From Narcine bancroftii (taxonomy: Eukaryota), in NCBI RefSeq assembly GCF_036971445.1, contig NC_091470.1, positions 55,738,001 through 55,802,000 of the forward strand: 64,000 nt of DNA, given 5' to 3'. Position 1 is the first letter of the stretch, and the number at the start of each line of letters is the position of its first letter. The notes below the pieces were generated by a model. It ran no database searches. It had not been told where the DNA came from and saw only the letters and a list, made by a program, of their open reading frames with translations. Made by a program: the position numbers and the translations under genes. This document shows, piece after piece, positions 1,136 through 64,000 of the stretch.

Positions 1136-2651
1136 TCGTGGAATGTTCTCTTGAAGTCAACCTTGTCTTCACAGGTCACAAAATGGGGCAGGCTTTGTAG
1201 AAATACTCATAACCGCTTGGACAAAGTCAAGTTTTCTCAGAAGACACACTTTTGGATAGCTAAGGTAGCAGAGCAAGAAATATTAGCACAGACAGCCTCC
1301 AAAGGAGAATTGATCAAACTTTTCTGAGAAAGATTGCACCTGTGGAAAGATTAAAGGAATCACAGGCCTATTTTCAAGGCATTTCTTCAAGGAGTGATGA
1401 AAGTCTGATGAACTAGGTGGTCATCTGATTGAATGTGGCAAGGAATAACAGGGCTACAGGACACAAAATATTTTTAAAGATATGTAAAAAACAAAAGCTA
1501 AAGCCAGTCAGTATTGACCAGATATCTTCAAGGCACATAATGATCACTTGAGGATTGTGATGTCAGAGAGGTGATAATGAATGAAATTAATGGAATGCTG
1601 TAGCTCATTGCCAATGTGCTGATAAAAATACCATACTTTGAACAATCAAGAGTAAATGTGTTGACTACATCCTTGAGATGAATTGCGACTTCCCTTCCCT
1701 ACAAAAAGTAACAAAAAACTGCTCTGTTTGAGCCAAGTACAGATATGCAATTAATTCTGCTCACACTTTCTTTGCAGAGAGAAAATAAGATACCCAATCT
1801 ACCCCCAAACCATCAGCAGGGGTTTTAAATCTCATTGGAATGATAGACTCTTGAACCGTGGGCAGAACAGCAAAAACATGCCAGACCATATACTTCAATT
1901 TCCAATTAGCACTAAAAACGACTCAGTAGCAAAGACACTACAACTAGATGAGGCACTGTATGAAAAAGTCTTCAGCTAAAATCATGCTTCATCAGAAATT
2001 TGGAAGTGTGGTTTTCACACAAATGGATCTTTACCCTTAAATTGAACCACACCCTTAGTGTCACCTTAATCTGCTGATTAATTAATGGTTCTTTATTACC
2101 AATTTAAATTGTAGCCCAATGTTTAAGTTTTGTGATCAGATTTGCATATTACATGGACATTCACAGAAGATTTGACAACAGGATTATATTTAAACCAGTA
2201 AAATGGTTGTTGTCAACAGCGACATATAATCATAAATATTACTTTCCAGAAATTAAAGAACAAAGATTGTTTTCAAGAATCTCTTTAAATCAAGAGAACA
2301 AAAAAACCTTATTTGTATTTACAACTTGAAATTGAGTGCAAAAATAATGTGAATGATCAATATTTCCTAACATTTAAAACCATAGTGGAGCATAATTGGG
2401 CAGTCTAATTACTATTTTGATACCCAAATGAATGGCAAGTCAGTATTTCAATTATTTTCCAAAAATTGCCAAAGGAAAATTCAACACGATAATAGTCCAA
2501 ACATAAAACAAGGCTGCCATTTCCATGCAAAATTCAATGCACAACATGCAAAATTCAATGCACAATACTCACAATGATCAATTGTTGTTGAGATTAAAAT
2601 CAGAATATCTTCAAAAGTAAAGCACATTAAATAGTTATTTACAGAATTGAT

Positions 2652-2977
2652 TCAAAATTCAATCAGATGTGTATATGGACCATTGGTGTCCATTTGCAAC
2701 ACTTGTCTGTTTCCATATGTTCCATGCTTGACCACAACTTGAGCTTCAGCACATTTACTGTTCAATGCCAACTCTTTTTCACATTGAGCTACAAAGAGTG
2801 CATAAAGCTCTTTTCCATCTTCTTTTCCAATATTGTCATGGTATTGCATAGCCCGTCCTTTGATTTTACCACCCAAAGTAGCTTGAGGTATAATGAGAAT
2901 ATTAGCAGGTACATCCAGTACAGACACATGGTTGCCTGTATTATCCTCACAGAGTTTCACATTCAACAATGTTTTAA
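2652..2977 (-). CDS. DTD2: D-aminoacyl-tRNA deacylase 2 / animalia-specific tRNA deacylase (ATD), exon 3 (last, includes stop)
   Basis: Acceptor TTTTTCCTTGCTGCAG; 326 nt; encodes (I)[11 protein letters not shown]...IIPQATLGG...[23 protein letters not shown], containing the ATD signature motifs PQATL and DTNGPYTH. Confidence 0.97.
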
Positions 2978-3299
2978 CTGCAGCAAGGAAAAAAAAATGA
3001 TAGTAAAATGTAAACACTTTCCTATTCCATACAAACTGCTTATCTGTAATACATTTTGGGAAAGCTATCTGAATAAAATTAAAACACAATCTTTTTTTAT
3101 TTCAAGCAAATTTACTTCGTCATTTTTTGTCTTTAAAACTGGTTTTCAATTGTTTGTGGGATGTACTGATCAGTGCTGTGATTGCAATGACCTGGAAAAT
3201 GGTGGTATGTTTCAATAAGTGAGCTAAGTTGTACTTTATGGCAATTGAAATTGATATCACTTTTAAGTGAGCTCCTTCCTTTCACTAAACATCACCCAC

Positions 3300-4185
3300 A
3301 ATCAAGGATTAAGTTTTTGGTCTTCAATATTTTTGACTTGATTAACTGCAACATAATTCTGGTTACTAAGTTTGTAGATAACACCAAAATTGTTTAAGAG
3401 GTGGACAGTGAAGATGATCCATTCTGATTTCATCAGAATATTCATCAACTGGAAAAATGGGCCAGGGAATGGGACACGGAATTTAATTCAGACAAGTAGG
3501 AGGTATTGTGTTTTGGCAAGTTAAACCAGGGCAGGACATGCACTGCAAATGGTAAGGACTCAAGAGAATGTTGTCCCAGAGAATGAGGATACAGGAACAT
3601 AGTTCCTTGAAAGTGGCAATGCAAGTACACAAGGTAGTGAAGGTCACATTTGGCGTCCTTGGTTTCATTGATCAAAGCATTTAATACAAGAGTTAGGCTA
3701 TCACATTACAGTTCTACAAGACATTGGTGAGACCATACCCAAGCAATTGTGGTCACCTACACCAAGAAAAACATCATCAAGCTGGAGAGGGTGCAAAATA
3801 GATTCACAAGGGTGTGTTTCACGGCTTGAATTATAAGAATGGGAACATTTTTCCCCATGGAGAACATGAGGCTGAGGGGTGATCTTAGAAATTTGTAAAA
3901 TCATGAGGAGCACAGCAAAGATAAATAGTCAGTCCTTATCCCAGGACATGAGAATCTAAAACTAGGGGGCACAGAGGGGAGGAAGGGAAGTTTCAAAGGT
4001 AGAACATGAAGTGAAAAGGAAGTGATAGAGAGATGCCATTGCAATATTTAAAAGACATTTAGATTGGTATATAGATAGAAATCCTTCAGAAGAATCTGGA
4101 GCAAAGGATTATCTTAAGTAGATAACTTGGTCAGCTTGAATAAATTGGGCCAAAGGGCTTGCTTCCATGCTATAAAACTGTAACA
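3300..4185 (+). mobile_element. CR1 LINE 3' fragment, degraded
   Basis: Remnant KF(A/V)DNTK RT motif near 3368, 'ggaatttaattcagacaag...gtattgtgttttggc', and 'ctggagagggtgcaaaatagattcacaagg', all typical of the CR1 ORF2 3' half. Confidence 0.75.
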
Positions 4186-4634
4186 GGATGTTGCCTGGCA
4201 GTAATAATAGAAAATGGAACCCCTCCAAACTTTCCCAAACAAAATCAAATTCAAGCCTTTCATGTGATCAAAATTATTTAAGGTATCCAATGTATACTTT
4301 AACACGTGTTGAATACTTTATTATTCACAATTTGACATTTTCCTGCAAACTGGAAATGCATGATTTTTTAATTAACCCCCTATTTTCACTTCCACATATA
4401 TTTCTCAAAGACTATTTATCTCTCATGCATTCCATCCAACTTCAACAGTAATGTCTTCAACCATCTATGCTAGGTGCTATGATTTCATTATGAATCTTGA
4501 GATCATTCCTCTTCATCTCTACTTTCAGCTTCAAAAACTCATCCTTCCTGGGCTTCTCCTTTCACGGTGTCAATTAAGTTCCTGTGAACTGCCAAAGGCT
4601 ATTTTCCAACAGGTATTTGAAACTGTGATTATTA

Positions 4635-5390
4635 CTGCATTCAGGGTTTTAATTTTTTTTTAAATTTCAAAAATATACTTTATTCACAATTTAAAAAAAA
4701 ATGAAAATAGTTTTTTCACATTTTTGGTGTCAGGTTTGTAAATGCATTCCTTTATAGAGATATTTATTTTACTGCATAAGCATCATTGCCATTAATATGA
4801 CCAATTATGGTAACACCCCTCTCTTGTTTGAGGGACTCAGCCCCTCAATTCCCAGTAATGGAAGGACAGGGTCCAGTAGCCTGGAATGTGCCAGTCAGCA
4901 GTATTCCCTCTCAGTCATCAATGCGTGTTGAAAGACCAACCAAAAGGCCAGACCAAAAGGCATCTTTCACAAAGTTGATGATCTTCCAGCAATTCTGGAT
5001 GTCTGTCTCTATGAGCATCCCAAGCTGCTGCTGGGGATGAGCCATGATAAGGACCTTTGCATCCTTCTCCACACACTCTTAGCGAATCTTCATTCTGTAA
5101 AGAGGTGGGTGACTATCTTCACTCCACCTCAGTTATCTTGAGGACAACTTGCGATGGAATTATGGTTAAATGTGTTTGGAAAAAAAAAATTCCACAGCGG
5201 AGATGTGGTGTGGCAAAGCCCAGCTGACTAGGACAATGTGCAGAAATGGGGCCAGGCCCATCCTTTGCAACACTTGGAACAGGTAGAACCTTGGCACATG
5301 GTGCCCTTGTACTTCGGTTCCACGCAGCCTGATGGAGTCACACAAAGGTGGTCATCTCACGTTTGCCCCTATTGTCTGAAGACTTGAATA
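4635..5390 (-). mobile_element. Tx1-like (L1 clade) LINE 3' fragment
   Basis: T-rich tail with tttatt at about 4635-4685; degraded cysteine-rich C-terminal region; related to the plus-strand fragment at 57550-58010. Confidence 0.55.
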
Positions 5391-5406
5391 TGATTGAATA
5401 TGAATC

Positions 5407-7681
5407 CAAAATTCTATCATGGCAGCTTAAGACAGAACAAACTAAGAGAATGGTATTGGCATCAAGGAAAAAAGACAAACAAATCACATATAATCCAACG
5501 GAGATTAATGAAAACTTCAGAGAATTCTACGAACAATTATACCAAACTGAAAACGAAGGGAAAGAAGACAAAATAGATGAATTTTTAACTAAAATTGAAC
5601 TAACAAAATCACAAATAGAGCAACAAAATAAATTAACAGAACCATTTGAAATAGTAGAAATACAAGAGATAATAAAAAAACTACCAAATAATAAAACACC
5701 AGGAGAGGATGGATTCCCAATAGAATTCTATAAAACATTTAAAGATTTATTAATTCCTCCCCTCCTGGAAGTAATCAACCAGATTGATAAAACATAAAGC
5801 TTACCAGATTCATGCAAAACAGCAATAATTACAGTAATACCAAAGACAGGGAAAGATCCACTTGCACCAGCGTCATATAGACCAATATCTTTACTTAACA
5901 CAGATTATAAGATAATAGCTAAACTATTAGCAAACAGATTAGCCGACTATGTACCAAAAATAGTAAATCTAGACCAAACTGGATTTATTAAAAAAAGACG
6001 AACAACAGACAATATTTGTAAATTTATTAACTTAATTCATGCAGTAGAAGGAAATAAAGCTCCAACAGTAGCGGTGGCTTTAGATGCAGAGAAGGCCTTT
6101 GACAGAGTAGAGTGGAATTATTTATTCAAAGTACTACAAAAATTCAGCTTACCAGAGAAATATATTAATTGGATTAAAGCATTATATAACGGGCCATTGG
6201 CGAAAGTGACAGTAAATGGATATATATCAAAACAATTTAATTTAAGCAGATCAACAAGGCAGGGATCCCCACTATCGCCCTTATTGTTCGCGTTAGCCAT
6301 AGAACCACTAGCAAAACTGATAAGAACAGAAAATAAAATAAAAGGGATAAAAATAAAAGACAAGGAATATAAAATCAGTTTATTTGCAGATGACGTTATA
6401 GTATACTTAACAGAACTAGAAATATCAATAAAAGAATTACATAAGAAATTGAAGGAATATGGAGAAGTGTCGGGTTACAAGATTAACGCAAATAAAAGTG
6501 AAGCAATGCCAGTGAATAATGTGGATTTCTCAAAATTTAAGAAAGAATCACCATTCAGATGGCAAATGCAAACAATACGATACCTAGGTATACAAATAAA
6601 TAAAAACCTCGGCCATCTATATAAACTCAATTATTATCCACTAATGAAAAAAATTACAGGACGACTTAGAGCATTTGAAAGACATACCACTAACACTAAT
6701 AGGAAGGATAAACTGTATTAAAATGAACATTTTCCCAAGGATACAATACCTATTTCAGGCATTGCCAATATGTATATTAAACTGCAAGAAATGGAGAATG
6801 AGGAAACAAATGGTAAAACTAAACAAAAATGGGAACAAGATTTAAATATAAAGATAAAGAAGGAAACATGGGAGAAGTTATGCTCTGGAACGATGAGAAA
6901 TACAATAAATATGAGGTTACGTATGATACAATATAACTTGATACACAGGCTATACATTACACCTCTAAATTTAAATAAATGGGATCCAACAGTATCTGAC
7001 AGATGTTTTCGCTGCAAAAAGGAAATGGGAACAATTCATGCAATCTGGACATGTGAGAAAATGAAAAAATTTTGGGAAGATCTAAACCAGATATTAAATA
7101 AAATCACAAAAAGCAATATACCAAAAAACCCAGAGATCTTCCTCCTAAGTAACATACAAAATAAAGAATTTGGACTTGATTTGGATGGTGCACAAAAAAG
7201 ATTTGTTAAGATAGCTCTAGCCGTAGCAAAAAAAATGTATTATGTCAACCTGGAAATTGGAAGATAATTTGAGAATACAACAATGGTATGTAGAAATGAA
7301 TAAATGTATTCCATTAGAAAAAATAACATATAATTTAAGAAATAATATTACAATATTTGAACAAATATGGGAGCCATACATGAAACACAATGGAGAAAAC
7401 CTACCGGGGACATCTACCACCTAAAATGACAGAAGAAGGGAATGAAAAGGATTGACTCAGTGAAAATTCTTGTTTGTTTTTATTGAGTGACAACATTGTT
7501 TTGACGGGTTTAATGTATCTTAGATTCTGAACTTTAAATGAATGGGAGGGGAGGTAGGGAGAGTGGGATGGGAAGTGGGGGGGGGGGGGAAGAAAACGAC
7601 ACTGTATATATTTGAAAAGGAAAATGTATGTATCTTGATCAATGTGGTTTATAGTGTGAAAAATAAAAAAAAATTAAAAAA
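5407..7681 (+). mobile_element. 5'-truncated L1-clade LINE (ORF2 RT and C-terminal domain, disabled)
   Basis: KTPGEDGFPIEFYK, YRPISLLNTDYKIIAK, ALDAEKAFDRVEW, RQGSPLSPLLF, LFADD and CFRCKKEMGTIHAIWTC; stop at 5795, frameshift near 6650, internal deletion near 6767; G-rich 3' UTR, AATAAA with poly(A) at 7662-7681; candidate TSD ATGAATC (5400-5406 / 7682-7688). Confidence 0.93.
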
Positions 7682-10695: not shown

Positions 10696-11997
10696 TGAAC
10701 AAAGCACATCAGCACTTTACTTTCCCAGGTATCTGTGGAGGTTCAGTACAACATCGGAAACCATGGCAAACTTCCATAGATAATGTAATTGAAAGTGTGC
10801 TGACCAGCTGCATCACAGCCTAGTATGAGAGCACTAATACCTGAGCGAAAAACCCTGCAAATGTTAGTGGACACAGCCTAGTACATCACAGACAAAACTT
10901 TCCCCACCATCAAGAACATCAACATGGAACGTTGTTGTCATCAGAGAGCAGCAGAAATGATCAAGGATCCACACCACCCAGGTCACGCTATATTCTCGCT
11001 GCTGCCATCAGGTCCATGTGCCACTTGCCTCCAGGGTCAAGAATAGATGCTATCCTTCAACTATCAAACTCCAAAACAACAGTCTAATTCAGAGACTCAA
11101 GAACTTGTACTTTGCGCATTATTTATATATATATATATATATATATAAAAAAACAGACTCGCCAAGGCAAATAGCGCCTTTGGAAGACTACACAAAAAAG
11201 TCTGGAAAAACAACCAACTGAAAAACCTCACAAAGATTAGCGTATACAGAGCCGTTGTCATACCCACACTCCTGTTCGGCTCCGAATCATGTGTCCTCTA
11301 CCGGCATCACCTACAGCTCCTAGAACGCTTCCATCAGCGTTGTCTCCGCTCCATCCTCAACATTCATTGGAGCGACTTCATCTCCAACATCGAAGTACTC
11401 GAGATGGCAGAGGCCGACAGCATCGAATCCACGCTGCTGAAGATCAAACTACGCTGGGTAGGTCACATCTCCAGAATGGAGGACCATCGCCTTCCCAAGA
11501 TCGTGTTATATGGCGAGCTCTCCACTGGCCACCGAGACAGAGGTGCACCAAAGAAGAGGTACAAGGACTGCCTAAAGAAATCTCTTGGTGCCTGCCACAT
11601 TGACCTCACATCGCCTCAAACTGTGCATCTTGGCGCCTCACAGTTCGGCGGGCAGCAACCTCCTTTGAAGAAGACCAGAGCCCATCTCACTGACAAAAGA
11701 CAAAGGAGGAAAAACCCAACACCCAACCCCAACCAACCAATTTTCCCTTGCAACTGCTGCAACCGTGTCTGCCTGTCCCGCATCGGACTTGTCAGCCACA
11801 AACGAGCCTGCAGCTGACGTGGACATTACCCCTCCATAAATCTTCGTCCGCGAAGCCAAGCCAAAGAAAGAAAGAAGAAACACACACATATATCAATTTG
11901 CACAGTTGTGTACATTTCTTTCTTCTGAAATTCTGCCAGGCACACAGCATAAAAAAAAACCTCAGGATTGTATGTACTCTGACATTAAATTTGAACT
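10695..11997 (+). mobile_element. Rex1/Babar-type LINE 3' end, interrupted by an RTE element (11150-11880)
   Basis: 'gaaagtgtgctgaccagctgcatcacagcctagtatg' and 'atcaaggatccacaccacccaggtcacgc'; the tail 'gacattaaatttgaact' resumes after the RTE insert. Confidence 0.7.
11150..11880 (+). mobile_element. RTE/BovB-like LINE 3' fragment, young
   Basis: VYRAVVIPTLLFGSES...LLERFHQRCLRSIL...LRWVGHISRMEDHRLPKIVLYGEL...PKKRYKDCLK, then CNCCNRVCLSRIGLVSH; (GAAA/GAA)n tail; CpGs retained; sits next to a (TA)n run at 11124-11147. Confidence 0.9.
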
Positions 11998-14220: not shown

Positions 14221-14567
14221 CTAAAATATTTTCCTTTCTGTGATTTCACCTTCAGTAGCTGTAGATGTGGTAGGAAAGTCAGCCATATTGTGACCCATCA
14301 TCTGTCCCAGCATAAAAAGAACACGAGCTTCATGTTCTCTATCACTTTGCCTCATTCTTTCCTCCATTTCCATACGGAGTTGCTCAAGACGAGCAAAACG
14401 TTCCTCTGACGCTTCCATGTAACGGAGAAATTTTTCATCTGCAGCTTCACTGTATCGGATAAACTTCTCCATCATTCCATCCATGATGTCCTCCAGTGAG
14501 TGCTTCTTTGCTTTCTTCGGCTGAGGTGTAAATGGTAGAGATGAATGTGTACGCCTGACACGGGGAG
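14221..14567 (-). CDS. Myb/SANT-like (MSANTD/Harbinger-ORF1-like) protein, exon 2 (basic patch and coiled coil, includes stop)
   Basis: Acceptor TTTTTTTCCCTTTAG at 14568, phase 1 matching the exon 1 donor; (P)PRVRR...PKKAKKHSLEDIMDGMMEKFIRYSEAADEKFLRYMEASEERFARLEQLRMEMEERMRQSDREHEARVLFMLGQMM...KIF*. Confidence 0.85.
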
Positions 14568-15329
14568 CTAAAGGGAAAAAAAAAATACACAACATGTTTG
14601 AAACATGCCTACCTGGGCAAATAACCATGGAAAACTGAAAATAATTATTTTTCATGGAAGGAAATACACAAAATTCCAGGTGACGACAATAATTGGTGAA
14701 CACTTAAAGCTCATCCATTGCTGTAGGTCACCTTCAATTCAAATATCCAGAATATCAACCATCAGTGCCAAGACTCAGACTGACTGCTATTCAAACTTTC
14801 ATTGATGACTATGTAACCTCTAGACTGAGAAATTTCAATGTGTGCCTCTCACATTCTGCCATCCCATTTATTTTCAATTTCTAGGCTTTGTCTCATTCAA
14901 CAACTGTATGATTTGCTCAACCTATTAATTCTAAGATGTCTGCATTCCTCTTATTCTGTGCTCTTGATTACACCTGAATTTAATTGCTCCAACATTTGTG
15001 GCTAAGTTTTTTCATCTAACAAGATATTAACACTATTCATTTCTTTAAAATGCTCTTAAAAACAGCTTCCTGGATCAATACTGACAAACTTTACTCTATT
15101 TACACTCTGATGATATTCCGTGAGAAATGTAACATTTCCTTTATTAATGAAGCTCAATTTGCTTTTGTAATTAATAAAGTTTTACAATTGAATATCTGTA
15201 CTTAAGTTACAAATCTAAAAAAAAAGTATTTCAACTTGATTATGGTTCAGAAAACTTTAAAAAATGTCACTAAATTCAAAAGACAGCATCTGAAAGCAAC
15301 ATGAGCAACACAAGGCTCATGTGGCAGGG

Positions 15330-15825
15330 TATTAAAAAAAAATGACTGCATCAACCTTTCTGGTCAGCAATAACGATGCCTCCCTAACAGGATTGAGGAG
15401 AAAAATAAGGTGACACCAAAGAAAGCCTCATATTCCCCTGAAGAACAGGCATCCTGCATAGCCTCAGCTGAGGTGAGGAAGACCCTACCCAGGGTGAACC
15501 CACACAAATAACAATCCTAATTGGGTGCAGAGGACTTTGTGGCCCAGCTGCTGGAGATTGTAATGGACATCTACAACATCTCAGTGCAGCAGTCCTTTGT
15601 CCCCACAAGTTTCAAGGCAGCCACCACCATCTTGGTGCTGAAGAAAGTGACAGTAACTAAACTAAATGACTATGGCCTAATGGCACTGACATTTATGATC
15701 AAGTGCTTTGAGTGGCTGTTGTTGGAATGCATCAAAGTGCATCTTTCAGTTTGCCTACCATCCAAACTGCCTTGATCCTCTACTTTAACCTGACCCACCT
15801 AGAGAACAATGCCTCACATACAAGA
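15330..15825 (+). mobile_element. Rex1/Babar LINE RT fragment (N-terminal RT part)
   Basis: ORF 15521: DIYNISVQQSFVPTSFKAATTILVLKK...LNDYGLMALTFMIKCFEWL (family pattern PTCFK..IIPVPKK..LNDYRPVALT..MKCFERL). Confidence 0.8.
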
Positions 15826-18800
15826 CCATAAATACAGAATAGGCTATTCGACCCATCAAGTCTTCCACCATTTTCCCATTCAGTCCCACTGCCTGGCCGT
15901 CTCACCATAACCTTGGTACCCTGGCTGATCAAGAACCTATCAATCTTTACCAAAAGATACACCAAAAGATTTGGCCTCCACAACTGCCTATGGTATAAAT
16001 TCCACAGATTGAACTGCTTATTCATGCAGTGGCTAGCGTAGCTATTGGACATTAAAGTGACAAGAAATTTTGTCAATAATCCACCATGCTCCTGAAGGAA
16101 ATAAAAATCCAGTGAGCTTTGATAGCTATATCACAACAACCTCAGGACTTATTTTCCCTGTGCCATTAAATTTTGATTCTTGAGGAAAGTGCGAAATGGA
16201 GGGGGACAATACGAACTCCGCAAAATCCCACACTGCTGTATGAAGAACTCAGCACCGGCCACAGCCAGTTAATCAGATAACTATCACACTCACAGCACTA
16301 GCTAATAGTTTAAAGTGACCTATTGCCTGCAATGTAAGCCCCTCCCCAAGGAAACTGCACAGGACTTTTGGGTGTGCTCATTGCAGCATCCAGACTTATG
16401 CTGGAGCTCAGGCATTTAAAGATGTCCAGCCTTTGGCTTAATTTAATGCAATCCTTATCAGAAAAAAACTCCATCATTAGATAACACTAATTGAAACTTG
16501 TCAGATAAGAGAACAATCTAAGAGTGGTGATGCCTTCTGCCCGAGAAATAAAGAGGAAGCTGAGGCACCACTGAAACCCTGAATGAAATATGAATTTCCT
16601 TTAGGAATGCCAATGGGAGATGACGACAGGGATGATTGGCTATATCCAAGCGAACCAACACAGATTCTTGTTCAGCATTCTGACCCACCTCAGGGGTGAA
16701 ACCGATTCTGGAGACCCCACCCAGGACCCCAGAGCATACCTAATAAATATACCCGACCACCACTCTCATGGTCCACCACCTCGCCGAAATGTCTGCTTTA
16801 AGTGTGATGGAGAAGGACATTAACATTGGGAGTGCTCCTCCTTTGGAGAGGACAATCGCTGCCAGGCATCTTTTACTACAGATAATCCCTTCTGCCAATG
16901 ATCTGAGGAGGGGCCAGAGGTCCACACCACCTTCCCCTGAGTAACATGAGGAAGGAGTGAGGAACCTAGAGTTACAATGAAGGTGCAGGATGTCTCTCTT
17001 CCATTTTTGATTGATACAAGAGCAACTTTACAAGAATTCTCACAGGGAGCATTGACCAACATCTCAAGAAGTCCATGGTACCTTGCAACACCATCGTCAG
17101 CAAAATACTGAAGTATCAGAGGAGGTATGGTCAGCATCACCATATAAGGTAGGATAAACCAACTCAACTACCTTCCATACCACCTTACATCAGTCAGTAC
17201 AAGTATACATCCAGCATTCAGCGGCAGCTCTCCTGAAGTTCAATCAAACAGGCCACATGACTCGAGCATGTTTGAGCCACTATGAACTTTCTCTTTCAGT
17301 AAGCACGTATCTGATCTTCTACAACTTCACTACTGTTATCTTGGCAGCCTTCATAACACCACCTCCAGATGAACTTGAAGAGCTAGATTATGATTGTTTG
17401 CAGCATAATCTTCTTTTGACTTCTGGCACAACAAGATTTAATAGACAGTCCCATTAATGGAGCTCTGACTTGGTTTGATGATGGGTCAGCTTTTGTTGAT
17501 GATACAGGTCAACACTGTTCAAGTTATGCCATTGTCCAAAATACAGATGAGATAATAAAGGCAGCTGCCTTCCACCATTCAGTCTGTCCCAGCAATCTGA
17601 ATTTTTTGCCCTTATTAGAGCCTACAAAATAGGAAAGGGAATATCATTTAATATTTATGCACTGGGAATAACTTACACAGATGCCACTGCAAAAGCTGCT
17701 GTTATAAACGGTCCCTTCACCATTTTTCAGAAAGAGATAAACTGGTTATAAACAGAACAGTCTTGTCTGATACAGGGGATGTAATACAACTTCAGAGGAA
17801 CACCCCTACTAATTTGATTAAGGTCTGGAAACAGCAGGGTGTGCCAGGGATCCAGAAATTGAATTACGAACACTCCTGCTGAACAATTTATGTACCTAAT
17901 GCATTTTTTAAAAACTGTACTGCTTAATTACATACATGAAATAACACATTTGGGTATGGGAATGGTAGGAGTGGCACACCAGTTTGAGAAAAGAGGCACA
18001 AAGTAAGGCACAGGAATGTATTATCTGTCAGCAACATAATCCTGGTAAAGCAATCAAGTGTCCTCCGGGTAGGGCATGAATGACTATCATTTGAGTATAT
18101 ATAGATTTTACAGAATTGCTTAGAGTAGCTATAAGTATTGTTTTGTTATTATTGATCTACCTCATGTCTTGGAAAAAAAGCTGAGGCAAATTTATATTCT
18201 TATTAATATCCACATTATAAATGTACAAACTTGGATAAAGGTATAGCATTCTCCATGAACGAAGAAAGCGATCAGTGATACAGGGCAAATTCAGAATTGT
18301 TGCTACTTGCTATTAATAGGTTAGTTAGGGTTTTTGATTATACATCAGTGGTACTATGTGTTCTTGCAAAGAACCTTCAAAAACAGTGCAATTTAGAACA
18401 TTTTATCCTCAGAACAATTTAAGTAAATATGGCAGATGTTTTGGCAATGAAGAATATGCATTCAATATTCCCAAATTCAAAACTATCTCTAGCTCCCAAA
18501 TTAATGTAAACTTAAATAATTTACAAGGAGACAAGACTGCAAACAGGCTGGTTGCAGCTCTTTGGTTAATTGAGAGCTTAAATACGACTATTACATCTCT
18601 ATTCATTTACTTCCTCTGGGCTTAAATATTATAATTTTTTAAAAATAAATTTAGCATCTACTGATTATTTTAATAATAGCTTAAGAAGATATCAAGGCTT
18701 ATTGGCAGTGATCCCCTGCTGGTGCTGATGCAGCCTTGACGTTACAAGACCTGTAATCATATACAAGCATAGGACAAATCTCAGCAGAAAAATTGTTTTG

Positions 18801-19215
18801 TATTTCAAGTTCAAGTTTGAAAGTCAACATCAGAACTTCATTTTTATGGCATTCAGTTGATCATTATACTGTGAAGCTGTTTGACTTGGAGTATCTTCAT
18901 TACATTTTAAATTCATTTTTTGATTTTCCAGCTTTATTTTTAAAGTCTCAATCTGCTCCAGATAGGTTTTGAGCTACATACAAAAGGGAAAAAAAAAAAG
19001 TTGATTAAATTCTGGGGACCTACCCAGAAGAAAGAGGAGGACAATACAGAGGTATCGGACGGAATTCGGCCAGGAGACACCCACGGCCGTAAAGGTTAAG
19101 GAGGAACCTCGGTAGATACATCACACCTACTGTAAAAAGATTGGCCCTGGAAAAAGTCAGCATGTTGCATCAGAGGACAAGCCAGAGCCTAGATCAGGCT
19201 CCTGAATGGCAAAAA

Positions 19216-20332
19216 TGAACAATGGGTGTATTTAAAGGTATTTTTGGCTTTGTTTTGGGACTCTTATAATGACTAATTTGATGAATGAGAATGAGAATTC
19301 AAATCAGATAGCTAAACGGGAATGGCATAGCCCAAATGTATGTTGAAACTATGAATTTATCTTACTGTCAGATCTGTAGTCATGTACCAACCCATAGTAA
19401 TCAAGATATTCCTATGGTAGCTATACCCTTTAATGATACAGAACATATAGCATGGAGCTGTCACTCCAACTGGACTCTGAGGGTTATACTGGCAAACATA
19501 TGTCAACCCACTATACATCGGTTTATTAATTGGTACAAGCCAAAATATAACCTGTCCATACAGCCCCTATATTAAATGCTGAACAAGTTCACCAAGGGAG
19601 GCACTTGTCCATGTAGAGGAGACTAAAGTAGATCTGGAACGGACTATTGCACTAAAGAAAGTACTGTAGTCAATTTGGCCATTTTATGGGGGATGCAACC
19701 TTAAATAATACCTATCTTTGTGATGAATGAAAAGCATATCCATGATAACCTATCTTATCCCAGCTATGTGGCATTTTGAGGATATTACTGACCATCCTTT
19801 GGTTGAATAAAAAGAACCATTTCTGAGACAAAAGTTTTTTATGATTCCATTTCCTCAGTATGATACTGCTAAGGCAGCCCGAGAATTGATTAATATGGCC
19901 AGTGCCCTAGAAAAGATTACCAATCAAACCACAAGGATTGAGAAAAACACACAGACCCAAATTTGCATCTCACCAATGAAGTGGTGGCCATATGAATTGT
20001 GGTCTTACAAAACCATTTAGATTTTGTTTTACTTCTAGCAGAAAAAGGTGGAACATATGCAGTTGTGGGACAAGAATGCTGTATGTGCATCCTTGATGCT
20101 TCATAAAATATCATTCATTTAGCAGAACACATTAGAGAACAGATACATGAAGTACAGAAAATTCCACAATTACAACCTCAGGGACCATCTTGGTGGCCAT
20201 TTAAGGGATGGTAGACTACATTTATCCAGCGATTATGTGTCCTATCTATCATGCTACTGATAGTGTGGCTTTTGCGATTCTTTTATTTGATTCATGTCTT
20301 AAAGATGTCTTGTTACAAAGGATTATCATGAC
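19216..20332 (+). pseudogene. ERV env remnant (SU CxxC, furin site, ISD, CX6CC remnant, TM)
   Basis: CQICSHVP at about 19365; [CGA>TGA]-IKR|TISE at 19804; ISD from 20005; GGTYAVVGQECC; hydrophobic LCVLSIMLLIVWLL; multiple stops and frameshifts. Confidence 0.85.
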
Positions 20333-20439
20333 AGATCATAGTGTAGTTTCATTTTGCTTTTTTCTTTAATAGTAGGGCATACAAACAGACTCCAAATAGT
20401 AGGGCATTTGAATGGACACCAGAATGTTAGTGTGGTGGT

Positions 20440-20810
20440 CCCAACGCTTCTGTATGCATCGGAAACCTGGACAACATCTGAAGGCACTTGAAAAGTTCCA
20501 TCAACGCTGTCTTCGTAACGTCTTAAATATCAGCTGGGAAGATAGAAGAACTAAAGTCAGTGTGCTAAATGAAGGAAAAACAACAAGCATTTGAAGCCAA
20601 CAGATGTGCAGAACTAGAAGAAAAGAGAAGTAAATGAAAAGAGAGGCAGCAGCAACCAAAGTCCAATCTGCCATCTGGAACTACCTGTCCTGAATGCGGA
20701 AGATCTTTCAAAGCCAAGATTGGACTCAGAAGCCACTTTAGAGCCCATAAATAGGTCAACGGAATGAAGTCCATAATCCTCGACCTCAAGGGATAGCCAT
20801 GACAACAACA
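20440..20810 (+). mobile_element. RTE-clade LINE fragment inserted between env and the PPT
   Basis: LKALEKFHQRCLRNVLNISWEDRRT and CPECGRSFKAKIGLRSHFRAH. Confidence 0.8.
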
Positions 20811-20875
20811 TAAAGGGAAAATAAACCATATTGTAATACTCATTAATTATCATAAAATGATAAAAGGAAGGAATA

Positions 20876-21321
20876 TGAAAGAATAAGTTTTACGAATATA
20901 CTTTAAAAAGGGTTAATGGATTATGTAAGAAAATACAGTAGCAGCTTGTGCAATTGTGAGAACATAACTGCCTTCTTAACATCTGTGCCAGAGTGAGATA
21001 GTCCCCAACTTCACAACAATGTCTATAAACCTTGGGTACAAAATACTAATATTTCTCAGACACTTCTAGACATCACAGGATAACATGTTATTGTAAATAC
21101 AAAATTGTCAGGTGTGAAACTTCAAAGGATCTCATGCAGACCCCTGCCCAAAATGTGTATAAAAGTTCGATGAACACTCCATGGCTTTGAGTTGGGGTTC
21201 AGTGTAGAGAACAAGTTACTAAATTAATTCTCTTATCTCCCCCTTAGTCCCGCTAGTGTTACCAAGGTGAAATAAAGAAGCTGTTGTATGCTTAATTGGT
21301 TCTGCTGTTTGTTTTCTTACA
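20876..21321 (+). mobile_element. ERV 3' LTR
   Basis: Preceded by PPT AAAAGGAAGGAA (20862-20873); termini TGAAAGAA...TTCTTACA (7/8 inverted match); TATAAAA at 21158; AATAAA at 21271. Confidence 0.8.
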
Positions 21322-21334
21322 TCATGGGCTGACT

Positions 21335-22110
21335 TTTGTCTCCTGCTCACTGAAAATCAACATAAGCACACCTCAAGGACGCATGCTTAGCACACAGCTC
21401 AACTCACTCTGTGACTGTGTGGCTAAATACAATTCAAATGCTATTTGCAAATTTGCTGATGACATCAGGATTGGCAGCAGAATCACAGATGGCATTGAGG
21501 AAGTGTACAGGAGGAAGATAGATCAGTGAGTTGTGTCACAACAGCAACCTTGCACTCAACGTGAGGAAAACTAAGGAGATAGTAGAACACGAACTAGTCT
21601 TCATCAAGGGGTCAGCAATGGAGAGGGTCAAGAACTTTAAATTCCTCGAGTCTCCATGTTGATGCAATCACGAATAAGGCTCACCAGTGACTATACTTTG
21701 CGAGGAGTTGGAGGAGCTTTGGTATGTCACCAAAGATTCTTGGAGACTCTCCAGGTGTGCCATATTACTCTCTGGTACAGAGGTGCTAATGCTCGGGACA
21801 GGAAAAAAAAACTCCACTTGGCCTGCGACATAATGGGGACCAGACTTCACTCCATCGAGGATATCTACAATAGGCAATGTCAAGAAAGTAGCCTCTGTCC
21901 TTCGGGAGCCTGAAGACAAGCACTCAGCAGCACAAAGACATTCCAATTTCTGAATGAATAATGAACCCAAGACACTTCGTCTTTTTTTGCTCTATTTCTT
22001 TAAATTTATTTTGAAATATGGTTTATATAAATGTTTGCACTGTGACGCTGCCTCAAATCACAAATTTCGTGATTTGTTCATGACAATAAATTCTAATTCG
22101 AAACTTGAAT
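21335..22110 (+). mobile_element. Rex1/Babar LINE 3' part
   Basis: STPQGRMLS...DCVAKYNSNAICKFADD; 3' tail 'gacaataaattctaattc'. Confidence 0.8.
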
Positions 22111-23204
22111 CTCCACCTCAAAAACACGGTCACAAAACCACCACCTCACTGGTCAAAACATTTTCATCATCAACAAGACATTTTATTACGAGTTAAAATT
22201 AAACGAATCCAACACAATCCAAGTCAAAATAGCGTTCCAAAAATATTGCTGCCCTCCAGCGTATCCAAAAGTGCTCTGGAACGATCCTACAAGCATTTTC
22301 GAAAACACCTCCCAACCAATAGCAAAACTAAGGCACATTAGCTCCTCAAATTTCTCCTCCAAGGTTACACAACACTCCAGTTTATAAACATCATTCGTTC
22401 ACAGTCAATAAATTCTGACAGCATTGTGGAAGACACAACGGCTCGCCGCCCCTATCGAGAGAAAGAAGAAAACATAAAAGTGCATATTTTTTCTTCATAC
22501 CCATGTGAATAATATGCAAAAATTAAGCATACTAAATTGGAATTTATTTACTTAAAGTGACCACTAATATTCTTCTGTACAAGGTCCCCGTTTCAAAATT
22601 TAAACTTGAACAGCAGTGATCCAGTAGTTTTCGAGTAACGCTCAAGCCTTTCATCGTCCCATCTACAGACTCAGTACAAGTAATTGCTTCAACTGAACCC
22701 CATTTAGTGCTTAAGTTCCCAAGTTCATCGGAATTTAGAACACTACAATCATGTTTTCAGCTCGGTTTACAACGGGCATACGATAAAGAATGAAAACAAT
22801 CGTTTAAAATACTTGCAAAGACAAGAACACGGTCAAAAGTATTATTTAGTATCACGGATGATCGTCAAGTTGGATTTTCAATTTTTTCTTTTGAGAGTTC
22901 ATATTTAGAAATCTAAAAGTTGAGAAATTCAAAGTTGCCGCGTAGTTGTGAACCAAAGAACTGAAGCCTGTGCAATTAAAAACGAAATGATTGAGCTGAT
23001 TGTTTACACGTTGAGTTTATTGCAACTTCCGTGACAGTTGAAACACAATTGTTCCCCTTCCCACGCAAAATTTTCTGATAACTCATTGAACATCTAAAAG
23101 GATTAAAGCATTTCACTAATTCCTTACTTCGAGAAAAGACAGTATTCCCCATTTGGAATTGACATTAAGCTCACTCTGAAAGCGACAATAACTTAAATTC
23201 TTAC

Positions 23205-23733
23205 GACAGAAAGCACTGGTAGAGGGTTGAGGCTCAAATGGCCGGTTGATGGTCTCCCCCATCGAGTGATCGGGCTCCTCCGAGGAACAATGGCCATTGC
23301 GGCATTCAACTCTTTGGCTGATATCGGAGTGCGGGCTGCTGTGCTCCTCCTTCACGTCTCGCGACTCACTGGGGGTCGCGATCGCGTCCATGACTACAGG
23401 CCGTTCATTGGCAGCTCGGGAACCGAGCACAGCATCAAGTTGCTCGAAGAAGCGGCAGATCTTCCTCCCACTGGCGCTGCAGCCCTGCCTGATGCTGTCC
23501 TTGGCCAGCGTGTATTTTCTCTTCAGTCCCTTGATGCGGATGCGGCACTGCTCCGGGGTGCGGATGTAACCCTGGTCCAGCAACTGCGACGAGATGAACT
23601 TAAAAACGTGGCTGTTCCTCAGCTGCTCGTCCAGAGCCGTCTGCACATTCTCCTCACTCCAGACCGCGATCAGCGCCAGGGTCTCGGACTCCGACCACAG
23701 GGCGCCGCGTTCAAACCTCGCCTCTGACATCAT
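23205..23733 (-). CDS. Myb/SANT-like (Myb_DNA-bind_4, trihelix-type) DNA-binding protein, exon 1
   Basis: MMSEARFERGALWSESETLALIAVWSEENVQTALDEQLRNSHVFKFISSQLLDQGYIRTPEQCRIRIKGLKRKY...CRFFEQLDAVLG; donor C|GTAAGA at 23204; joined to exon 2 gives 876 nt / 291 aa; an in-frame upstream ATG at 23901 would add 56 aa. Confidence 0.9.
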
Positions 23734-24169
23734 TGGAAAGCCGGCGCCCGGCGGCCCACACTCTGCGGCGGGGGGGGGGCACCCCAGCCCACTTTTTTCA
23801 CCAACAAAAAGGATGGAAGAAACAAAACAAACTGCCCTCCATGATTGAAACCATCGGATCACTCGAGAGGCCCCTTCAAATTTGCCCCCTCTGAGAACCA
23901 TGGGTAGATGTTGGCGTCATCTCCACTTCCGGGCATCGGCGGGCCCGGCACCTCTGACACCAAGCTCCAGCATGCCGACGGTGAATGGTGGTGGGTGGCA
24001 GCTTTGCAGAGCTACCCACTTTGCGGCTCGGCGATCATTAATGAGCTGAGGCGAGGACAAACACTCATGGCAAGGCCTGTCTTTTGTGGTCCTGGCCGTC
24101 GCCTTCGAGTGACGCGGTGAGGAGGCGGGGCGAGTGCGCGTGAGGGCGGTTGGTGGGACCAGTGGGTGA

Positions 24170-39254: not shown

Positions 39255-42200
39255 GACATGGGACATTACATCACAGTACAGGCCCTTCAGCCCACGATAT
39301 GTGCTGAACTATGTTACATTCTCAGCAACAGTCTAATTCTTCCCTACTTCACTCCCATCACCCTCTTTTTCTTGCATCCATGTGCCTATGTAAGAGTCTT
39401 TTTAATGTCCTTTTTGTACCAGCCTCCAACACCACCCCCATCAGTGCATTCCAAGCACCCTCCACTCTATGACATCTCCCCTGAACTTTCCTCCACTGAT
39501 CTTAAACAGATATCCTCCTGGTATATGCTTTTGTCGCTCCAGGTTAAAAGGTACTGGCTGTCCACTCAATCTTTTATACGATTAATTCACCTCTGATGCT
39601 TTATCTCTCTAAAGAGAAAAGCCTTAGCTCTATCAACCTTGCTCCAGAAGATGTCTTCAGTTCAGACAACAACCTGGTAAATCTCTGCTGCACCCTCTCC
39701 AGGGCATCTACATCATCCCTTTAATGAGGAGATCATAACTGAACTGAATAGAAGTATGGTCAAACCAGAGGTTATTTTTGAGCTGCAAAAATCTCCTACT
39801 TCCCTCTGGTTTCTGCAGGCAGGCCAATTCTGAATCTCACAGCTCTTAAACTCTATCCTCTGACTAATGCAGTATATCTTTTTAACCACCCCATCAACTT
39901 GCATGAGAACCTTGAGAGATCTATGCACTTTGTTTCTCAATGCTGCAAAAATCCTTTAACCACATACTTTGACCTTCAAAGTACATCATTTAAACATCTA
40001 GAATAAACTCTATCTACCACTTCTCTTCTGAACTCCATCCTGCCTATATCCTGTGGTAACCTATGATATCTACACCATCTGCAACACATCTAACTTTTGA
40101 ATTATCTGAAATGTAGTGACCCATCCTTCCACTTCTTCATCCAAGACATTTATATAAAAAAAAATCACAAAGAGCAGGGGTTGCAGAAAAGATCCCTGCA
40201 GGATGTCACTAGTCACCAGCCTCCAGGTAGAATACATTCCATCTACTACTTCTGCAAGCAAACCAGTTCTGAATCCACACAGCTAAAGTTGCATGGATCC
40301 CATACCTCATGACTTTCTGAATGAGCCTACCATGGCAGACCTTTTCCAATACTCACTAAAAACCATATACACCACATCACCACCTTACCTTCATCAATTC
40401 CTCTTTTTTTTTTAACTTCCTCACAAAACTCAAATAGACTTGTGAGACACAACCAGCCCCTCACAAAGCCATTCTGACTATCCCTGAGAAGACTATTTAT
40501 TTCTAAATGCTTGTAATTCCTGTCATTGAACCATAGAACATTATAGCACAGAAACAGGCCTCTTTGGCCATTTTAGTCTGTGCAGAACCATCTTCTTTTG
40601 TCTTTCTTCACCTTGATCTACTCCCACTGACCTGCACCCTGTTCATAGCCCTCCATAACTCTCCCATCCATGTACCTGTCCAAATTCCTCTTAAATGTTA
40701 AAATTGAGCACACATTCACGACTTTAGCTGGAAGCTCATGCCACACCCCCACCACATTTTGTATGAAGAAGTTCTTCCCTCATGTTCCCCTTAAACTTTC
40801 CCCTTTCACTCTTAGCCCATTGTCTTCTGGTTTGCATCTCACCTAGCCTTAGTGGAAAAAGCCTATCTACATTTACTCTGTCAATCCCCTTCATAATTTT
40901 AAATACTTTTATCAAATCGCCCCTAATTCTTCTATGCTCCAGCAAATAAAATCCTAACCTGTTTAACCTTTCCCTGTAACTCAGTTCCTGAAGTCTGGGC
41001 AACATCCTAGTAAATCTTCTCTGCACTTTTTCTATCCTTTTGATATCTTTCCTGCAGTTAGTTAAAACTGCACATAATACTCCAAATTTGGCATCACCAA
41101 TGTCTTGTACAAACTTTAACATAGCATCTCAACTCCTGTTCTCAATACTTTGATTTATGAAGGCCAATATGCCAAAAGCTCTTTTATCACCTCTATCCAC
41201 TTTCAGGGAATTATGTATCTGTATTCCCAGATCCCTCTGTTCTACTGTACTCCTTAATGCCCTACCATTTACTGTATATGTCCTTTTTTGGTTTGTCCTT
41301 CCAAAATGCAACACCTCACACTTGTCTATATTAAATTTCGTCTGCCATTTTTCAGCCCATTTTTCTAGCTGGTCCTGATCCCTCTGCAAGCTTTGAAAAA
41401 TTCTTCGCTGACCACAACACCTCCAATCTTAGTGTCATCTGCAAACTTGCTGATCCAATTTACCACATTATCATCCAGATCATTGATATAGATGACAGAC
41501 AGCAATGGTCCCAGCACTGATCCCTGAGGCACACCACTAGTCACAGGCCTCCAAACTAAGAAGCAATCATCCACCACTACTCTCTGGGTTCTCTTGTCCA
41601 GCCATTGTTAAATCCAATTCACTACTTCACCATGAATACCTAGCGTCTGAACCTTAAGAATCTTCCCCAATAGTTTGCTCACCGCTGAAGCAAGTCTCAC
41701 TGGTTGAAAATTCCCAGAGTTTCCCTCTTGCTTTTCTTCGGGGACTATATTTGCCATTCTCCAAACCTCCAGTAACTCTCCTGCATCCAAGGAGGATGCA
41801 AAAATCATTGCCAATGGCCCAATAATCAGGGAATATTCTGTCCAGTCCCAGTAATTCTTCTATCTGAATCATTAGAAGATCCAGTACTTCCTCTTTCTTC
41901 ACCTTGATCTACTCCAGCATTGACCTGTTACATTCTCCAAGGTCGCTCACCCTAGTGAACACTGAAGCAAAATATTAATTTAGGATCTCTCTATCTCCAG
42001 GCACATATTCCCACCCCCCCCGCCCCACCATCCCTTTTTGCTCCTACTCTTACTCTGGTCTCATTTCTGTTCTTCACATGTATTGAAATCCTTCTGATTT
42101 TTGCTTAATCCTACTTGCCAAGAACTTCTCATACCCTCTTCGAGTTCTCCCAAGTCCTTTCTTAAGTTCCTTCCTGGCTAACGTATAATTCTCGTGAGCC

Positions 42201-62719: not shown

Positions 62720-64000
62720 GCCATTCTGTAAGCTGTCATATAAGGTAAGGATGTATAGATTTGAGGGTGATGTATTTATATGGATAGAGGATCAGTTATC
62801 CAATAGTAGAGAGTTGTGATACATGGGTGTTTTTCTAGTTGACAATCAGTGGTGAGCGGTGTGCCACAGGGGTTTGTACTAGGCCCGCAACTGTTCACAA
62901 TATGCGTTAAATTTTATTTTTAAAAATTTAGAGAAACAGCACGAGTTAATTGGGAATTAAATGATCCTTTTGAACAAATCCCTTTTAATATTTTGGATCC
63001 ATGATGAAAAGTGAACAATAAAGAAATGGAAAGTAGATTATGAGGAAAGATTGGCACAAAATATAAAAATGGACAGTAAAAGTTTTTATAATTATATAAA
63101 GCAGAAAAAGATGGCTAAAGTGATCATAGGTCCCTTGGAGAATGAGAAGGGGGGATTGGTTTTGGGTAATTAGGAAATGGCAGAAGCTTTAAGTGACTAT
63201 TTTGTGTTGGCCTTCACAGTGGAGGACATGTCTACCATGCCAAAGACAGATCTGGATACAGTAGTGATCATAAAAGAAGGGATGCTTAGAAAACTTGTGG
63301 GCCTAAAGATTATGAACTGTTTTGTGTCATTATTCATGGAGGAGGACATGTTGAAAATGTTAAAGACAGATGTTAAGCATGTGATAGGAGGTGAGGTGAA
63401 GAATTTAATAGCTATCACTAAAGAGGCCATTGTCAGAAAACTTGAGGGCCTAAAGATTAATAAGTCCCTTGGTTCTGACAGAATGCATTCCAGGGTACTG
63501 AGGGAATTGACAGAAGTTATAGTTAACATTTTGGTGATAATTTATCAAAATTCTCTGGACTCTGGGCAGATCCCAGAGGATTGGAAGATGGCAAATGTCA
63601 AGCCACTGTTCAAAAAAGGATGTAGGAAAAAGGCAGGAAACTATAGGCCAATTAGTTTAACATTTATAGTTGGGGAGATGCTTGAGATCATCATTAAAGA
63701 GGAAATAAGAGGTATCTGGAATGAATTGGAACCATCAGGTAGACATAACATGGAATCAGAAGAGCAGGTCTTGTTTAACAAACACTGGAATTATTTGAGG
63801 ATAATAATGAGCACAATAGATAGAGGAATAGGTGGACATTATTTATTTGGATTTTCAGAAGGCATTCCATAAGCTGTCACATAAGGTAAGGATGTATAGA
63901 TTTGAGGGTGATGTATTTATATGGATAGAGAATCAGTTATCCAATAGTAGAGAGTTGTGATACATGGGTGTTTTTCTAGTTAACAATCAGTGGTGAGCAG
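62720..64000 (+). mobile_element. CR1 LINE with internal duplications (runs off the window)
   Basis: MAEALSDYFVLAFTVED...KSLGSDRMHSRVLREL...IPEDWKMANVKPLFKKGCRKKAGNYRPISLT. Confidence 0.88.

Follow-up and report, generated by a model that had tools for sequence, protein, structure and literature searches.

Results

A class I retroviral relic in a Myb/SANT gene intron

The 64,000-nucleotide stretch of the Narcine bancroftii genome examined here (contig NC_091470.1, positions 55,738,001 to 55,802,000; hereafter the window, in whose coordinates all positions are given) carries an endogenous retrovirus (ERV) at 16040-21321 on the + strand. Very probably it is what remains, without coding capacity, of a simple, epsilon-related class I retrovirus, of a lineage that is also present in skates, sawsharks and catsharks. 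Its parts follow one another in the retroviral order gag, pol, env, polypurine tract (PPT) and long terminal repeat (LTR). Set against the complete order LTR-gag-pro-pol-env-PPT-LTR, every part is in place except the 5' LTR, which is missing together with the primer binding site (PBS) and matrix, and all reading frames are broken by stops or frameshifts. Four features of the sequence support assignment to class I (gamma/epsilon-related): a tether with RNase H, an MLV-type integrase C-terminus, an in-frame stop at the gag-pol junction, and a gamma-type env. A first-pass annotation, made from the letters alone, had proposed a class I element with its parts in canonical order, lying antisense in a Myb/SANT gene intron; each part was found close to where it had been proposed, and spliced contigs bear out the intron.

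Nearest relatives of the pol remnants

A profile built from 16 intact Pol proteins, scanned against the six frames of the entire window, matched the region of the element only. The pol frame 17158-18168, with stops read as X, was searched against 1.84 billion protein representatives and matched just four of them, none from Gypsy elements: a little-skate ERV Pol (P0001; E 2e-11; a cluster of Leucoraja and Amblyraja), then a sawshark protein and two others. We built a tree from the 197 profile columns covered by the element, keeping 29 of 52 rows for run time, none of them Gypsy. The element groups in one clade with the elasmobranch ERV Pol proteins (the Leucoraja XP_055501356 cluster, Amblyraja XP_032872649, the Pristiophorus sawshark protein P0002 and the Scyliorhinus catshark protein P0110) and one further protein, with support 96/95. 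Over shared columns the element is 46% identical to the catshark protein, 42% to the sawshark and 39% to the skate, and at most 35% identical to anything outside the clade. When seven pieces of the element were scored separately against 181 references, five scored best on the elasmobranch clade, including three that lie outside the search frame. An approximately unbiased (AU) test rejected placement with gammaretroviruses (p 0.015; 0.05 in another run). The tree, and with it the Pol part of the class assignment, covers the tether, RNase H and integrase pieces, the reverse transcriptase (RT) core, on whose phylogeny such assignment normally relies, being absent from this copy. P0001 itself has its best match in MLV-type RT (E 5e-136, versus 2e-53 for foamy). 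The proposed origin in a cartilaginous fish is thus upheld indirectly, the nearest proteins coming from Leucoraja, Amblyraja, Pristiophorus and Scyliorhinus.

Breaks in pol and a segment replacing the integrase core

Pol begins with the first 27 codons of protease (16950-17030), of which 16962-17030 aligns with residues 15-37 of P0001 (p 0.003); the remainder of the protease is deleted. The end of the protease-RT spacer and the first RT residues follow at 17050-17165 (P0001 246-285); 17050-17163 scores 65 against P0001, where the maximum of 300 shuffles was 52. RT is then missing between profile positions of about 130 and 506. Next come the tether (connection) and N-terminal RNase H at 17176-17660 (profile match 17176-17658, independent E-value 1e-11), after which the middle of RNase H (profile 667-732) is deleted. 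The end of RNase H, the HHCC zinc finger of integrase and its first core motif occupy 17664-18157 (profile 733-903; 6e-6 for 17972-18157, from finger to first core motif), and the integrase C-terminal domain with its TPTAVKV motif lies at 19074-19175 (profile 0.011). Profile and pairwise matches thus recovered the RT start, connection, RNase H and both integrase termini of the first-pass annotation. Its statement that the RT and integrase cores are deleted is correct for RT but not for integrase, whose core is replaced, and the loss of most of the protease and of the middle of RNase H has to be added. A marginal RT-core score in 16950-17420 (38.4, shuffle maximum 36.8) was set aside, as it overlaps the far stronger tether match.

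An AT-rich segment of 853 bp (18158-19010; 32% GC) stands in the place of the integrase core. It shows no similarity to integrase or RT, 14 of 40 and 23 of 40 shuffles scoring as well, and we therefore rejected an integrase core or RT within it; three control regions beat all 40 shuffles in the same test. Given that the controls pass, the lack of Pol homology across 853 bp argues that the core was replaced and not just deleted. No telling inverted or tandem repeat was seen around the segment. It is multicopy, with bin depths of 102-170 in the DNA run X1, raised like those of its neighbours. The run data used throughout are contigs; X1 depths are summed at 80% likeness and are not copy numbers, and single-copy depth in X1 is about 13. 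Sequence like 18787-18976, a part of the segment, reaches a depth of about 440-470 in both X5 and X6, which are RNA-like runs (their RNA status is a guess), equal to or above the depth of host exons; this sequence may be where the segment came from, or a copy within some mRNA.

The skate relative has a long spacer in front of RT. Protease and RT motifs are 425 residues apart in P0001, against 299-318 in six viral loci. In P0001 some 110 extra residues are inserted ahead of RT (within residues 125-262), and the end of this insert aligns with 17050-17090 of the element. The insert contains two HxT-like motifs of the kind present in 2H phosphodiesterases. An Atlas look-up of the insert gave a tRNA-ligase phosphodiesterase, as a lead only (0.81), and a literature search on it returned nothing useful. 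The accessible part of one report does place a cyclic phosphodiesterase between protease and RT in epsilon-like ERVs of fish (PMC4977317).

Gag and the gag-pol junction

A capsid remnant spread over several frames lies at 16043-16600, identified by weak collinear matches to skate P0007 and catshark P0110 gag. In targeted sub-windows, 16070-16238 matched P0110 with p 0.006-0.008, and 16327-16368, at the position of the major homology region (MHR), with p 0.008. Each piece is weak when taken alone, but the frameshift-tolerant gag score against P0110 (47) was reached by none of 100 shuffles. The MHR-like gag of the first-pass annotation was accordingly retained, as was its single CCHC knuckle (16794-16835), which contains an internal stop (Pfam zf-CCHC E 0.47; p 0.007 versus two viral gags).

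Two in-frame TGA codons follow (16938-16940 and 16947-16949), the second at the expected gag-pol junction; the TGA proposed at 16947 is therefore indeed in frame before the protease, but it is not the only one. The knuckle, both TGAs and the protease share one frame, so that gag and pro-pol, as read from the letters, lie in one frame with a stop between. From TGA 16947 to the D-T-x-A motif of the protease there are 22 codons, compared with 27-41 in five viral loci. The gag-pol stop of the ancestor was most likely a UGA that was read through. No stable fold was found after the TGA (z +1.46), so a readthrough signal is not shown.

Env, polypurine tract and LTR

The env remnant (19220-20330) comprises a hydrophobic leader at about 19240, a surface-subunit (SU) CXXC at about 19365, a stretch like an immunosuppressive domain (ISD) plus CC at about 19995-20080, and a membrane anchor at about 20233. 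The transmembrane (TM) part, 19969-20322, matches Pfam TLV_coat (E 4e-4) and Syncytin-1 (E 9e-7), as well as all seven gamma-type envs tested, consistent with the ISD-bearing env of the first-pass annotation. These are the marks of a gamma-type env, apart from the first cysteine position of CX6CC, which is not cysteine. Stops and frame changes occur in both SU and TM. The TM does not match the large env frames of the reference loci L015 and L017; according to the available part of PMC13517186, L004 has the length and gag-pol junction of MoMLV, L015 has those of WDSV, and L017 has the junction of SnRV. A match to a small frame of L017 (p 0.01, in another frame) looks like chance. The epsilon-type env and accessory ORFs of the genus Epsilonretrovirus were not found in the element. 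Between env and LTR there is no extra ORF besides a long interspersed element (LINE) piece, the 5' end of the ERV being missing.

That piece, a LINE 3' fragment at about 20375-20815 on the + strand, matches the LINE frame 11149-11817 at 51% of amino acids, encodes a C2H2 finger and has an X1 bin depth of 2957. The PPT (20862-20875) ends directly at the start of the 3' LTR (20876-21321; 446 bp, TG..CA), both as proposed in the first-pass annotation. The LTR has a terminal inverted repeat matching at 7 of 8 positions, TATAAA at 21158 and AATAAA at 21271. It is the only copy in the window, where no second LTR or LTR fragment was found; of paired LTRs, PBS and target-site duplication, the marks of a provirus, there is one LTR only. 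With a single LTR, and with the 5' end replaced by repeats, the insertion cannot be dated by an LTR pair.

Pfam scans recovered little of this anatomy. The six-frame scan of the whole region detected no retroviral piece, and a short-window scan of 24 frames found TLV_coat in one and a weak knuckle in one, and nothing else retroviral.

Host gene and intron

The ERV lies antisense within a genuine intron of a Myb/SANT gene that is itself intact, and the host splices this intron cleanly. On the minus strand, exon 1 is coding over 23205-23733 (Pfam Myb_DNA-bind_4, E 1e-18), within a frame (23116-23916) whose Myb/SANT-like domain has mostly chordate nearest Atlas clusters. The coding part of exon 2 is at 14221-14567, seen as an open frame in spliced RNA-like contigs. 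Contigs joining 14567 to 23205 occur in both RNA-like runs (X5 and X6) and in neither of two DNA runs; the 8,637-bp intron between them (14568-23204) ends in CT..AC on the + strand, that is, GT..AG on the minus strand, and the spliced frame is open over 291 amino acids. In X5, contig depth is about 6-13 over the ERV, 7-11 upstream in the same intron and 47-74 on exons. No rise in depth was seen at the LTR or env in the RNA-like contigs, which is weak evidence given the flat depths and guessed RNA status.

A single contig covers 22065-23234, the 5' part of the host intron, at depth 36 in X5 and 63 in X6, well above the remainder of the intron; this may be a host isoform ending in the repeat cluster 21530-22100, outside the LTR. 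Pieces from X9, a run of an organism labelled B, match letter for letter at 16717-16874 and 17685-17852 in the ERV and at 23885-24036 near the host gene, suggesting that the insertion is probably common to a very close relative or to the same species under another label.

Family copies and possible transcription

X1 depth is 60-396 across the internal bins of the element and 578 in the LTR bin, against 12-16 in unique bins, showing that the family is multicopy and that its LTRs outnumber its internal parts. One X1 contig, 83% identical, covers 20907-21310 of the LTR, and there are 68 variant contigs at 20900.

Other copies appear to have the same breaks in pol. A 471-nucleotide X6 contig (16980-17441) spans both the protease and the RT deletion joints with 22 changed and 9 gap letters; the seven other X6 pieces listed show zero differences. 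A contig of X9 crosses the first (protease) joint, and 14-15 X1 contigs are variant at 17019 and 17142, which lie up to 156 and 95 letters inside a contig. Divergent contigs over the joints suggest copies with common deletions, and hence spread in trans. Among the contigs of the runs, none from a sister copy was seen to span either end of the 853-bp segment.

A sister copy with deletions of its own (17233 to 17346 and 17400 to 17470) has a depth of 130-210 in the RNA-like run X6 and about 9-10 in X1, so that one family member may be transcribed. Within 17233-17673, a joint from 17453 to 17673 occurs in the two RNA-like runs only.

Discussion

Origin and decay of the element

Taking the anatomy together with established knowledge, the ancestor would have been a retrovirus with LTR-driven gag-pol expressed by stop readthrough and with a gamma-type env. 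This copy would have lost most of pol, and as at least some sister copies appear to have the same protease and RT deletions, part of the family was probably defective, with RT and integrase supplied in trans. Integration antisense in the Myb/SANT intron would have left splice and poly(A) signals facing away from the host transcript, and the insertion was presumably tolerated and neutral; in human data, antisense is the tolerated orientation of intronic ERVs (PMC1794541, in its available part). Later decay may then have removed the 5' end beside a LINE/SINE (long and short interspersed elements), inserted a LINE in front of the 3' LTR, and scattered stops and frameshifts throughout.

Alternative explanations

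Several observations weigh against descent within the elasmobranch clade or against the spread of a deleted form. The element itself was the query that brought up three of the four clade members; its branch is long (0.84) in a tree of 197 columns only, and identity to the nearest relative is just 46% over 165 columns, which makes the element a different family. For the protease piece and the integrase C-terminal piece, the best-scoring references are gamma and WDSV-group viruses, and the AU test rejects neither the WDSV group (p 0.26), although a Pol in the WDSV clade is absent from the best tree, nor L017 (p 0.09). An overlapping frame, 17036-17149, is similar as well to a stretch of RT slightly farther on (p 0.007-0.026 in four of 20 references), leaving the exact RT remnant unsure. 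Two word-based searches with env frames returned no relative, weak evidence in that none of their 111 and 336 candidates was scored. Finally, the shared deletions rest on few contigs, from runs whose RNA status is a guess.

This last point favours an ordinary autonomous class I family whose deletions in this copy arose after integration, the deleted contigs being an allele or a segmental duplicate and no non-autonomous subfamily existing. Other copies do have different deletions (17233 to 17346, 17400 to 17470), and we regard this explanation as a real possibility. An allele or duplicate fits poorly with a crossing contig that differs at 31 of about 470 letters when its neighbours in that run show no difference, or with the 14-15 variant X1 contigs. 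Conversely, we advance tentatively, and as less likely than not, the fuller proposal of a class I lineage not described before and confined to elasmobranchs, in which the gag-pol junction is a UGA and a phosphodiesterase-like insert separates protease from RT as an ancestral trait. The amplified form of this lineage here would be RT-less, integrase-less and non-autonomous, would keep env, would carry an 853-bp non-viral passenger for the integrase core, and would include at least one transcribed sister copy.

Readings that place the element elsewhere, or give it a function, fare worse. An LTR of this kind could serve as an antisense promoter or terminator for the Myb/SANT gene, or env as a syncytin-like protein, given that the LTR keeps its TATA and poly(A) motifs and that the insertion seems common to the second organism label; the stops and frame changes in env, and (weakly) the flat RNA contig depth at LTR and env, make such co-option very improbable. 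A recombinant with an SnRV-like pol of class III and an env of class I has been reported from a cartilaginous fish in the accessible part of bioRxiv 10.1101/2021.11.23.469661, and the AU test leaves room for it; over the columns of the element, L017 is nevertheless the least identical (18%) of the 52 references, and the clade is otherwise class I, making this origin very improbable. A Gypsy/Metaviridae retrotransposon with an acquired env-like gene has the same LTR-gag-protease-RT-RNase H-integrase order, the deciding RT core is absent here, and the tree held no Gypsy row. The element, however, has a tether with a separate retroviral RNase H and a gamma-type TM, its Pol is not nearest Ty3/Gypsy, and all four representative matches are retroviral. 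So are all PDB matches of two pol pieces (3 and 9), to 'p80' RT/RNase H or XMRV RNase H chains; none is a Ty3 chain, although these are present in the library. The clustering with Gypsy elements that would have overturned the first-pass annotation did not appear, and we consider a Gypsy origin extremely improbable.

Relation to described retroviruses

Within the class I lineage that we favour, the elasmobranch Pol proteins resemble the element beyond the tree columns, in capsid and at the end of the long protease-RT spacer; they differ in keeping RT and mostly integrase, whereas the element lacks both cores. Other systems can be likened to it by description, as far as the parts of the papers available to us go. 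The ERV-EA groups of anamniotes share a simple gag-pol-env without accessory genes and a TM with ISD, CC and anchor; the same study reports epsilon-related Pol combined with gamma-type env and no accessory genes, and gamma-type env ERVs in six cartilaginous fish genomes, three of them with more than 500 copies (bioRxiv 10.1101/2021.11.23.469661). Of the three CmiERV lineages of the elephant shark, two are epsilon-related; CmiERV II/III are chondrichthyan and have env, like the element, but inhabit a holocephalan and are near-complete proviruses (PMC4422223). A clade Mu of ERVs has also been described (PMC6001957). SSSV, ZFERV and the frog ERV RMEV have a UGA gag-pol junction, with the hexanucleotides UGAAGA, UGACGA and UGAAGU where the element has UGAGGA (PMC13517186). 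WDSV resembles the element in its in-frame gag-pol stop and integrase C-terminus, and differs in having a UAG stop, accessory ORFs and an env frame of 1,229 codons to which the element's TM shows no match.

The literature thus already contains epsilon-related ERVs of cartilaginous fish that carry a gamma-type env, gag-pol junctions with UGA, and intronic ERVs in antisense orientation, and the novelty implied by the first-pass annotation was overstated (accessible parts of bioRxiv 10.1101/2021.11.23.469661 and PMC13517186). We found no paper on this particular family; subscription journals, repeat libraries or the sequence supplements of surveys may hold it. The copy encodes nothing, shows no effect on its host gene and is, as genomic fossils go, of an ordinary and known type. 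It contributes one record at family level to the ERVs of cartilaginous fish, which have been thinly sampled, and points to a Pol clade spanning skates, a sawshark and a catshark whose age could be estimated from orthologous insertions. Only the possible non-autonomous subfamily with its passenger sequence is a lead of wider reach.

Other repeats and features of the window

High-copy LINE/SINE remnants on the + strand occupy 15300-16020, where the 5' LTR, PBS and matrix would be expected, and adjoin the capsid remnant at about 16020; their X1 bin depth is 1352-6197, compared with about 13 for single-copy sequence, and they are related to other repeats of the window. The searches made returned no Rfam family match and no tRNA. 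Several LINE remnants have long open frames (5333-7267, 11149-11817, 40736-41128 and 63174-63872); to judge by their motifs, these are probably L1-, RTE- and CR1-like.

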